64,000 nt of DNA, taken from contig NW_026852350.1 in assembly GCF_026571515.1 (NCBI RefSeq), forward strand, positions 124,001 through 188,000. Direction: 5' to 3'. This DNA is from Ruditapes philippinarum. Lineage: Eukaryota. The notes beneath the pieces are model-generated. The model searched no databases. It saw nothing but the letters and a program-made list of their open reading frames with translations, and was not told where the DNA came from. Positions 6,101 to 9,100 of the stretch are shown piece by piece. The translations under genes and the position numbers were made by a program. Positions within the stretch are counted from its first letter, which is position 1. Each line of letters begins with the position of its first letter.

Positions 6101-9100
6101 AACTGTTACTAAACTGTTGCATGCATTTGCTCAAAACTGAAAAAAAGCTTTGATGACTAACTATAAAAAGACAGGTGAAACTTGTAAAGAATATTACAAA
6201 AATTATTTCAGGAAGAACACAATATCAACATGGCTTCATTATCATAGAACAAAACAACATAGCTTTCAATGAAAATAAATTATTTCTTTCTACAAATGAA
6301 CACAGCAAGCATTCAGTTTCTTCATAAGCAAACAAAAATATTTGGTTTTCAAATAAAAAAAGAAGCTTATTATAACATTTCATAATTACTAAATACCATT
6401 CTTACCTTGGCCTTTCTTTTCATCTGAACCATTCTTATTTCCTGATTTGTTCTTTTTGTCATGATCTTTTTGTGTATCGCTAATGAATACATCTTCGTCA
6501 CCCATAGATTCATTGGACATCAAACGTTCAGCCTTAGGCGGTCTTCCCGGTCCGCGTTTTATCTTTGGGTCTTTACTTGACTCAGATACTGATTTCTTCG
6601 GTTCGGTGCTAACACTTTCTGATGTCGACATGGTTCTCCGCCGTGCCGTGAGCAACAAGAGTGGGTTTGGGTCATATTCTTTTAAAACAGTTAATGGAAT
6701 ATTAGTACAAGGTCTTTTCAATAAGGATGATTTTTATTGTTTGAATATTTAAATATACAATAATATCAAAGCCATCGGCGTTCAATAAAATTTTATTGAA
6801 CTAAGAGATTAATATTTTATCATTTTCAGGACAGCTTTTAAACGATTGTGAATAATCAGCTCTTAGCTCTTTTTAAGGGATAAATTGTCTTTTTATACAT
6901 TGATACGATCGGAAAACCAAACAAATCGTTGACGATTTCCTAATGGAACATTTATACAAAAATGTGTTGAGAAATAAATGACTGAAGTGAAAAAAAACAA
7001 CAACAGTAAAAAACATAATTTCTTTTACAAAAAGACATGGACTGACTTTATATATCGTGTGCAAACAAATTATGTCCATATAAAAATATATTGCCTGTGA
7101 AACTTACCAACATGGGGAAAATCTTGCGGAATGATTCGGATGTGGTCTAGCGGAATTTTCCCTGTATCACCGTCGTCAAACTCAACATTATATAAACTTC
7201 TGTCTGTAATTGGATTTGGGGTCCCTAGCAACGCAGAACAAAAGTGATATGTAAATCTATTGTTACAGTAATGAACGAAAATATTCTAATGACATTGTGA
7301 TGTATTGTACTAATAAAGTGCGACAACGAATTATTTTTACTTAACTACATGCACATTTAAATCTATTGCATAGACAAGTAAAACATAACGACGGCATATG
7401 GAAAATTTCGTCCTGATATTCACTATGTATAAACATAAACTACTGACAAATTAAGAATAAATCGAAAAATGAAAAATTAAGAATAAATCGAAAGAAATCA
7501 CTTATACGTGTACCTCTTGAAATAGTTCCAGGGTACAGGCAACTAAATTGCTGGCTCCAGTAAGCACATATCCTGGTTCCTTCTTTCAGCTGGTCCCCAC
7601 TTAACGGTTTCGTGTCTTTTATCTGTAAAAAAAATGAATATTTTCATTTCCAAGTTTTATTTAACTTCAGTACTTCAGTATTAACTAATAAATGTATCAT
7701 TTCTCCATTTTTCATAATCAACAGTAATCTTTTCCTTGTTAAACAGTAAAACGTATTTTACAGTAAAACGTATCTTTTATGGCTCATTTATGAAGAATGT
7801 TATGTCCGAACTCATATCTGTTTATATCATAGCTTAATAGTATGATACATGTATATACTGTCCTAGGATGATAACTTGAGCCTTTGTTTACATAACAAAA
7901 ACCAATAACAATGCGAAAAATAGGTTAGGCAGATCAATGCCACAACCTATAAAATGAAAATAAAATTTCATAGTACCATATGACTTGTTAGGGCAGTAGG
8001 TAGAGCAACCGTGTCAGTAATGTGTTTTACCCGTACAGGCAGAAGTTCGACTACTGGTAACACACATTTATTTTTACCTCAGAACAGCCAATTGTTCAGA
8101 AAACAAGTTTGACCGGTTTTTTCATATACATACATAAATATGATATCGAATATTTTATTACACTGCGATCAAAAATACAAAAAGAAAACAGAATGGAAAT
8201 AAAAAAAAATATATATACTTTAAAATATATATTATAAGAAGAAAACAAAAAGGAAAACGAAAAATAAATAAAGAATAATGATAAAAAACAGAGTTGGAGA
8301 AAAAAGTGTGGTTATGACACTTAATGGGGTTCGAACCTATGAGTACAAAGCACTAATAGTTACAATTACTCCGACTTACCGACAGAGCCATAACGTTAAT
8401 ACACAAACGATTCTGTAAGAATAATGCTATATAGTATATTTTACGATATCGGATAATAATCCAGATAACCCCGTTTTTCGACTTTCCCATGTACCGTTAA
8501 GACCAAATTATCATCTTAGGACAGATACGTTATATCCTTGCAGGAAATGATATTAAATCTTGTGTAAAACGAAGTATATCAACATGTTAATGTCAACACT
8601 CGTACATTTGAGCGACAAAACCAACATAATGGGTTTGCGACCAGCATGGATCCAGACCAGCATGCGCATCCGCGCAGTCTGATCAGGATCCATGCTGTTC
8701 GCTTACAAATCCTATTACAAGTCGAGAAACTGATAGCGAACAGCATGGATCCTGATCAGACTGCGCGGATGCGCAGGCTGGTCTGGGTCCATGCTGGTCG
8801 CAAACGCACTATGTTGGTTTTGTCGTGACACGGCTCATTTAAATAAACACGATGTCTGAAAGGCGAATTTTTTTACATGGTATGGTGAAGCAATACAGAC
8901 ATGAGCGAAAGCTTTTTAATGTATATTATGTCACGAGACTGACTTCGCCGTAAACTTTGCTTTATAATATGAAACTCTCCAAAACGAATTTATGCTTCCG
9001 TGTTGAAGAGCCCCTGCACTACATGATTTTTTTCTCAAAAGCATAACATGATTTCTGTATCGTATATGAATAAGTACACACACGCAAGCTCTCAAAGACA

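Follow-up and report, generated by a model that had tools for sequence, protein, structure and literature searches.

RNA polymerase III signals placed as mirror images inside a terminal inverted repeat element of Ruditapes philippinarum

A 667-bp element bounded by terminal inverted repeats (TIRs) was analysed in a 64,000-nucleotide stretch of Ruditapes philippinarum DNA (NCBI RefSeq assembly GCF_026571515.1, contig NW_026852350.1, positions 124,001 to 188,000 of the forward strand; hereafter the window). This element, located at 7858-8524, carries two facing cassettes of RNA polymerase III (Pol III) signals, each with a TATA-like element, an A-box, a B-box and a T-run, and the signals are placed as mirror images with respect to its two ends. 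The mirror placement is a new point, absent from the initial annotation of this DNA. All results rest on the single copy of the element in the 64-kb window, and positions are those of the whole stretch. Taken as a whole, the element is read here, with about equal weight for and against, as a non-autonomous TIR element in which a captured tRNA-derived Pol III unit lies in old inverted arms and has been kept for loading of TFIIIC and TFIIIB.

Results

Two facing Pol III cassettes between inverted ends

The initial annotation had described inverted ends enclosing two facing tRNA-like modules, each with promoter boxes and its own T-run, and an A-rich spacer between the modules. The six motifs, which include the two T-runs, were found letter for letter where they had been placed, and the A-richness of the spacer, the 4/5-bp T-stem of the right module and the inverted ends were equally borne out. 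The features of the element and its flanks are as follows.

7855-7857: left candidate target site duplication (TSD), 3 bp, ATA; the sole perfect flanking-repeat length for the CTG..CAG ends
7858-7878, plus strand: left TIR, 21 bp, 19/21 against the right end
7948-7954, plus strand: TATA-like element of the left cassette, 91 nt from the left end, with the A-box 41 nt downstream of it
7989-8006, plus strand: left A-box-like element, 1 mismatch to the consensus
8044-8054, plus strand: left B-box-like element, 2 mismatches, one of them an A at the usually invariant C61
8071-8075, plus strand: left T5 Pol III terminator-like run, with a back-up T6 at 8117-8122
8081-8295: A-rich spacer, 54% A and 21% GC; its minus strand is T-rich with many back-up T-runs
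8300-8305, minus strand: right T6 Pol III terminator-like run, letter match
8327-8337, minus strand: right B-box, 0 mismatches, within a T-stem pairing at 4/5 bp
8341-8354, minus strand: right variable region of 14 nt; its geometry, including a 4/4-bp hairpin, is that of a class II tRNA
8373-8390, minus strand: right A-box-like element, 1 mismatch; letter match over 8390-8375
8428-8433, minus strand: TATA-like element of the right cassette, 92 nt from the right end, with the A-box 43 nt downstream of it
8504-8524, minus strand: right TIR, 21 bp, 19/21 against the left end
8525-8527: right candidate TSD, ATA, repeating the left ATA

With an A-box, a B-box, their spacing and a T-run 16-21 nt past the B-box, both cassettes have the make-up of a type-2 Pol III unit, the left B-box being imperfect. 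The inverted ends, the short length and the lack of coding capacity (the longest stop-free frame is 71 amino acids) are those of a non-autonomous TIR element or MITE (miniature inverted-repeat transposable element). No transposase remnant above the Pfam cut-off was detected in the 9 of 19 element frames scanned, and the spacer likewise gave no Pfam match above the cut-off in the frames scanned. An S1-domain match in one element frame stayed below the Pfam cut-off and was dismissed.

For the estimation of chance, both strands of the 64 kb were scanned with the textbook consensus of the boxes, written in IUPAC code, allowing at most 1 mismatch in the A-box and 2 in the B-box, an A-B spacing of 35-75 nt and a T5 within 45 nt. 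Exactly the two cassettes of the element were found, and no other site. Resampled windows contained 0.30 sites on average, with at least two sites in 3 of 100, and resampling at the composition of the element gave one cassette in 17 of 5000 cases and one per strand in 0 of 5000. When an upstream TATA was also required, one site was observed in 1 of 150 resamples and two in none of the 150; the background of a TATA-like motif in a 12-nt window is about 3% of window positions. Chance matches had been named in the initial annotation as an alternative that would refute it. By resampling, both cassettes are far beyond chance, and so is their joint occurrence, each with its own T-run, in a TIR-bounded non-coding element. 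Some points lower the force of this test: the mismatch limits were chosen to admit the left cassette, the TATA window was picked post hoc, and looser limits (A-box up to 2 and B-box up to 3 mismatches) gave two further sites in the window, with 1.27 expected.

Mirror placement of the signals

Counted from the left and right ends of the element, respectively, the TATA-like element starts at 91 and 92 nt, the GTTA preceding the A-box at 130 and 131, the A-box at 132 and 135, the GTTCGA at 188 and 189, and the T-run at 214 and 220. Two independently placed cassettes would fall within 1 nt of a mirror position in a fraction of 0.0069 of valid placements. Because the TATA, A-box, B-box and T-run are all mirror-placed, we take the cassettes to belong to the architecture of the element and not to represent two independent insertions of short interspersed elements (SINEs). 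The mirror symmetry and the upstream TATA elements thus make the observation better supported than first stated.

An origin by two independent insertions into an ordinary MITE, whether of tRNA pseudogenes, truncated SINE heads or Helenus-like solo long terminal repeats (LTRs), was weighed against this. It would agree with cassettes that cannot be aligned outside the boxes, with the closer likeness of the right one to tRNA-Ser (see below), and with the structure of Helenus LTRs, which likewise close with a tRNA-like unit followed by CAC/CAT and a T-run (PMC10886601, in part). We regard such an origin as improbable, since it would have to place the cassettes within 1 nt of the mirror by accident and to mirror the TATA as well, which lies outside the tRNA-like part. 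Moreover, the B-box is followed by no SINE body or tail, unlike in the bivalve SINEs described in passages of PMC10294476, and the cassettes are inverted, not direct repeats with PBS (primer-binding site) and PPT (polypurine tract).

Residual homology of the three arm segments outside the TIR and boxes was not detected, the combined score being reached by 301, 176 and 185 of 1000 shuffles under three scoring schemes. Unalignable DNA between kept signals is what would be left had the signals alone been retained, and we infer old, long inverted arms of about 215-220 bp, of which the tip and the Pol III signals alone persisted. Homology of the arms is suggested here by position and not by alignment, which counts against it, as do two results of alignment: the module-to-module score was reached by 6 of 1000 shuffles, but with the boxes included, and the B-box-to-T-run segments of the two arms score below the shuffle mean.

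The mirrored motifs could also be subterminal transposase-binding sites (inverted repeat/direct repeat or TCGA-type repeats) merely resembling Pol III boxes. Some Tc1-like elements are known to have long arms that have diverged around conserved inner sites. In addition, some bivalve elements of the pogo, MULE and hAT-Tip100 types carry GGTTCGA at their ends or close to them (PMC10294476, in part). However, the inner motifs are unlike the terminal repeat, and none of 14 GGTTCGA passages in the same source stood in an A-box to T-run context when inspected by eye. Such sites would also leave unexplained the Ser-like variable arm and the correct succession and spacing of the signals, from TATA through A-box and B-box to T-run. 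The probability of this reading is accordingly very slight.

tRNA identity of the cassettes

The tRNA-like character claimed for the modules held for the promoter boxes and failed for the cloverleaf. A tRNA gene was rejected: ARAGORN found 0 genes, and Rfam searches of the window, of the element and of each cassette by itself gave no match to a tRNA. Relaxed ARAGORN found the right cassette in the whole window only at a threshold yielding 27 calls. Whole-cassette folding z-scores of +0.72, −0.44, +0.40 and −0.29 were not significant. The right cassette can form 16 of 25 cloverleaf pairs, a level reached by 917 of 20000 shuffles with the boxes fixed.

The 14-nt right variable region equals positions 44-48 of human tRNA-Ser(GCU) in length and shares 10 of 14 identities with them, by eye (PMC8373065, in part), which corresponds to a single-test p of 2.6e-4 and to about 0.01-0.03 when some 50 isotypes and two cassettes are allowed for. 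The left cassette matched the same region at 7 of 14 (p 0.034, by eye), and the right T-arm agreed with the Ser-GCT probe of PMC11233606 (in part) at 13 of 16 positions by eye, a count that in part covers the B-box itself. The right cassette keeps class II geometry, and, judged from these comparisons, its tRNA donor was probably of Ser type.

Several results weigh against a tRNA origin of this kind. The Ser match was chosen post hoc. A custom class II tRNA covariance model, built from seven halovirus tRNAs, scored 10.3 bits on the right cassette (E 2.3, rank 4 of 5) and missed the left one on its own strand, with 12.6-50.7 bits for 12 other tRNAs of the same halovirus. In the left cassette, 9 of 25 cloverleaf pairs can form, no more than expected by chance, and the B-box is damaged at C61; this cassette may be dead. 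The top match of the custom model in the window, at 35635-35715 (plus strand; 14.3 bits, E 0.24), is without a B-box and is probably due to chance.

The best Rfam match of the right cassette was Vault (RF00006; full model, 14.5 bits, E 0.66). Vault RNA was rejected as an identity, because this score is below the gathering score of 34, the alignment leaves the A-box off the A-box of the model, and the left cassette is without an Rfam match. The match reflects the general layout of A-box, B-box and U-run. Short enclosing inverted repeats were also observed, modest in the right cassette (8397-8380 with 8328-8306; 81 of 2000 shuffles) and not significant in the left (7985-8003 with 8050-8070; 358 of 2000); their register is shifted from that of a tRNA acceptor stem, giving a vault- or VA-like panhandle. 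Pairing between the two predicted RNAs showed no complementarity beyond chance (246 of 500 shuffles).

The Vault match and the modest end pairing of the right cassette, together with the single copy in the window, would suit a host locus, that is, two vault-like Pol III RNA genes or a TFIIIC boundary element fixed in the intron, with inverted ends that are incidental or fossil. We consider this very improbable. The Vault alignment fails as described, the left cassette contributes neither an Rfam match nor significant end pairing, and the 19/21 TIR and the 3-bp flanking repeat are centred on the mirror axis, which points to a transposon.

Ends of the element and transposon group

When flanking repeats of 2-10 bp were tried, the 3-bp ATA alone was perfect; random 3-mers agree at a rate of 0.025. 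A TSD of TA with one extra base at the right end is the alternative, and the same pre-insertion site fits. An inverted pair of TIR quality was obtained in 1 of 10 resampled windows, as against five bins in the real window, one of which is the element. At positions 32-36, counted from either end, the two arms share 5 bp without a gap (7889-7893 on the left, with its mirror counterpart on the right), which suggests that the TIR formerly extended further.

With up to 3 mismatches allowed, the TIR pattern matched only the two ends of the element itself within the window. By blastn of the element against the 64-kb window, no second copy was found, only the element itself. The earlier interpretation is upheld for the architecture and not for a multi-copy family. 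The element gave no match to phages and plasmids at E 0.01, and the single cassettes gave 1 and 2 short matches to phages at E 0.9-3. Two loci with the TIR pattern in bacterial/archaeal genome contigs lie inside bacterial open reading frames and share the TIR pattern only; these were set aside as chance.

The first 400 nt of each of the 762 entries in the curated bivalve library of PMC10294476 (in part) were used for comparison, and all 41 autonomous DNA transposons starting with CTG were labelled TcMar. From this likeness, the mobilising transposase is most likely a DDE enzyme of the IS630-Tc1-mariner group. The start CTGTCC was, on the other side, found in 0 of the 41 entries, and the flanks do not fit readily either: TcMar elements duplicate TA, and Fot-type pogo elements TAA or TAAA (PMC7386202, in part), whereas the element has TA on the left and ATA on the right, so that TA requires the extra base and ATA is not TAA. 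The element is a candidate member of TcMar. Harbinger elements have a TSD of TWA. The PHIS group (Harbinger, Pangu and Nuwa) was rejected, since it needs a purine-led TIR and the present TIR starts with C, and since ATA fits none of ANT, CWG and TNA (PMC4482050, in part). Ends of the Ginger type (TGT..ACA) would call for a 5-bp repeat containing 1 mismatch and were rejected as less parsimonious.

Host gene and neighbouring repeats

The window has about 30% GC and contains exons of a minus-strand gene, one of which lies next to the element.

7515-7622, minus strand: host exon, BAHCC1-like Tudor domain (PF21744, 52.1 bits, cut-off 28)

The element is located in the intron upstream of this exon, and about 235 bp separate it from the splice acceptor. 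Its right cassette runs in the sense direction of the host gene. Several long low-complexity exons and the Tudor exon were noted on the minus strand between 6389 and 45838, and a BAHCC1/TNRC18-like gene covers most of the window over this range. Beyond the Pfam label, we take this gene to be BAHCC1/TNRC18 (winged eye)-like. For another host exon, the sole homologue match was a weak one to the bivalve Solemya velum (E 7e-4), and seven long exons of the window gave no Pfam match. Together with the Sola1-like ends of a neighbouring repeat (see below), this match points weakly to a bivalve host.

Other repeats are also present. A near-palindromic MITE of about 235 bp occurs in three copies (8610-8838, 12827-13063 and 57477-57713) that are 95-96% alike; its ends resemble the start of the curated bivalve entry Sola1_S.grandis_34, with AT-rich 4-bp flanks. 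The left end is shortened in the copy that lies 85 bp to the right of the element. An element of about 1.4 kb at 31356-32750 has a perfect 26-bp TIR and diverged longer arms (about 74% over about 165 bp); the strict Pol III scan detected no cassette in it. Short tandem repeats with periods of 21, 26 and 33 lie at 5290-5376, 7444-7493 and 47500-47567.

Discussion

The proposed history of the element has three steps. An ancestor would have captured a class II, probably Ser-type, tRNA-derived Pol III unit in its subterminal region; a copy of the unit, carried within a long inverted arm, would have come to lie at the opposite end; and divergence of the arms may later have spared only the transposase-binding tip and the Pol III signals. 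In Pol III transcription, TFIIIC binds to the B- and A-boxes and positions TFIIIB upstream. In the element, the TATA that separates TIR and cassette, some 90 bp in from either end, would receive TFIIIB, and Pol III may run inward from each end, giving predicted non-tRNA transcripts of about 90-100 nt. These would stop at T5 (8071) or T6 (8305), with the T-runs of the spacer as back-up, so that two RNAs without overlap are predicted. The element itself is presumed to be moved in trans by a DDE transposase. Since a DNA transposon moves without RNA, the most likely use of the Pol III signals is in chromatin: the likely benefit to the element would be open, barrier-protected chromatin beside both TIRs, and the RNA is probably a by-product.

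The same structure could be a passive relic, in which the element took up a tRNA pseudogene or SINE head a single time, arm copying produced the mirror image, and neutral decay followed, the boxes being without use. The damaged left B-box, the left cloverleaf at chance level and the non-significant folding z-scores agree with such decay, and MER6 provides a precedent of a Tc1/mariner MITE with SINE-derived passenger DNA (PMC6887750, in part). Neutral decay, however, should hit the boxes like the spacers, and here both arms retain TATA, A-box, GTTCGA and T-run, with unalignable DNA in between; MER6, in addition, has lost its tRNA head (same source). We therefore hold a relic to be unlikely, though to be taken seriously.

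A more far-reaching version of the preferred reading, namely a captured unit kept for TFIIIC and TFIIIB loading, is put forward only tentatively, and we lean somewhat against it. In this version, an undescribed cut-and-paste lineage would keep under selection a complete inward-facing Pol III unit (TATA, A-box, B-box and terminator) at a fixed distance inside each end, TFIIIC and TFIIIB holding the ends open or insulated so that transposition can proceed. The lineage would then be the class II counterpart of TRIMp3 elements, scattering paired TFIIIC boundary sites and small-RNA genes across a mollusc genome. If the Pol III signals at both ends are kept, they would point to a chromatin role, with TFIIIC and TFIIIB of the host keeping the ends accessible or shielded from silencing. 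By its symmetry, such an element would offer a natural construct for testing this idea on the chromatin of transposon ends, and the insulator biology of tRNA genes as well. Both tRNA-like false annotations and dispersed TFIIIC sites would have a new source in molluscs.

Comparison with known systems

A- and B-boxes are not a standard part of cut-and-paste MITEs, and Pol III signals are unusual there. The lack of a Pol III promoter even forms part of the definition of a MITE (PMC3879986, in part). Literature searches gave no title or abstract with a mirrored Pol III layout, Repbase, Dfam and subscription journals being outside their scope, and the exact TIR strings occurred in 0 papers by full-text search. 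An existing catalogue may already list the family among unclassified DNA elements.

Some known systems share single features with the element. Dada DNA transposons are tied to tRNA and small nuclear RNA (snRNA) genes, but they insert into such genes, are without TIRs and have a TSD of 6-7 bp (PMC3706591, in part). Pearl and DTC84 are bivalve non-autonomous MITE-like elements that were examined for Pol III boxes; they differ in having subterminal inverted repeats, a tandem core and a microsatellite, and complete A- and B-boxes were not found in them, according to passages of PMC3879986. The extra-TFIIIC sites of CeRep3 in C. elegans form a tRNA-like, interspersed repeat that has boxes A and B and is bound by TFIIIC in the absence of Pol III, and they are a model for a boundary role; they are described as putative tRNA pseudogenes, TIRs and pairing being unmentioned in the relevant passages of PMC6950938.

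Bivalve tRNA-derived SINEs (Meta, V, CORE and Deu) have heads with A- and B-boxes, among which Ser heads are reported and some V-SINE heads show long A-B spacing (PMC11481361 and PMC10294476, both in part). Their head runs into a body and a LINE-like tail with a TSD of 6-18 bp, whereas the present cassettes reach a T-run within 16-21 nt of the B-box. A tRNA-derived SINE was rejected on this T-run right after the B-box and the lack of body and tail, and the motifs were absent from the eight supplementary files of PMC11481361 that were searched. MER6 is a Tc1/mariner MITE of similar size, 865 bp, with a 24-bp TIR and a captured V-SINE piece; it differs from the present element with its two mirrored promoter units in carrying one SINE piece, from which the tRNA head was lost, and in its TA TSD (PMC6887750, in part).

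The element resembles the TRIMp3 elements Helenus, Cassandra and Ajax, which are non-autonomous and whose terminal regions each contain a Pol III promoter derived from a small RNA (PMC10886601, in part). Helenus is found in bivalves, and its LTRs retain only the tRNA boxes A and B, the cloverleaf being lost (same source). TRIMp3 elements are LTR retroelements with direct repeats, TG..CA ends, PBS and PPT, and a TSD of 4-5 bp, in which Pol III makes the transposition RNA (same source, in part); the present element has TIRs, and its units are inverted, point inward and terminate early. Membership in Helenus was rejected, the units being inverted and unalignable outside the boxes; of six motifs searched in the supplement of PMC10886601, five gave no relevant match and the sixth matched as the generic B-box. 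Under the preferred reading, the element would be the class II analogue to Helenus and Cassandra, and not a member of that group.

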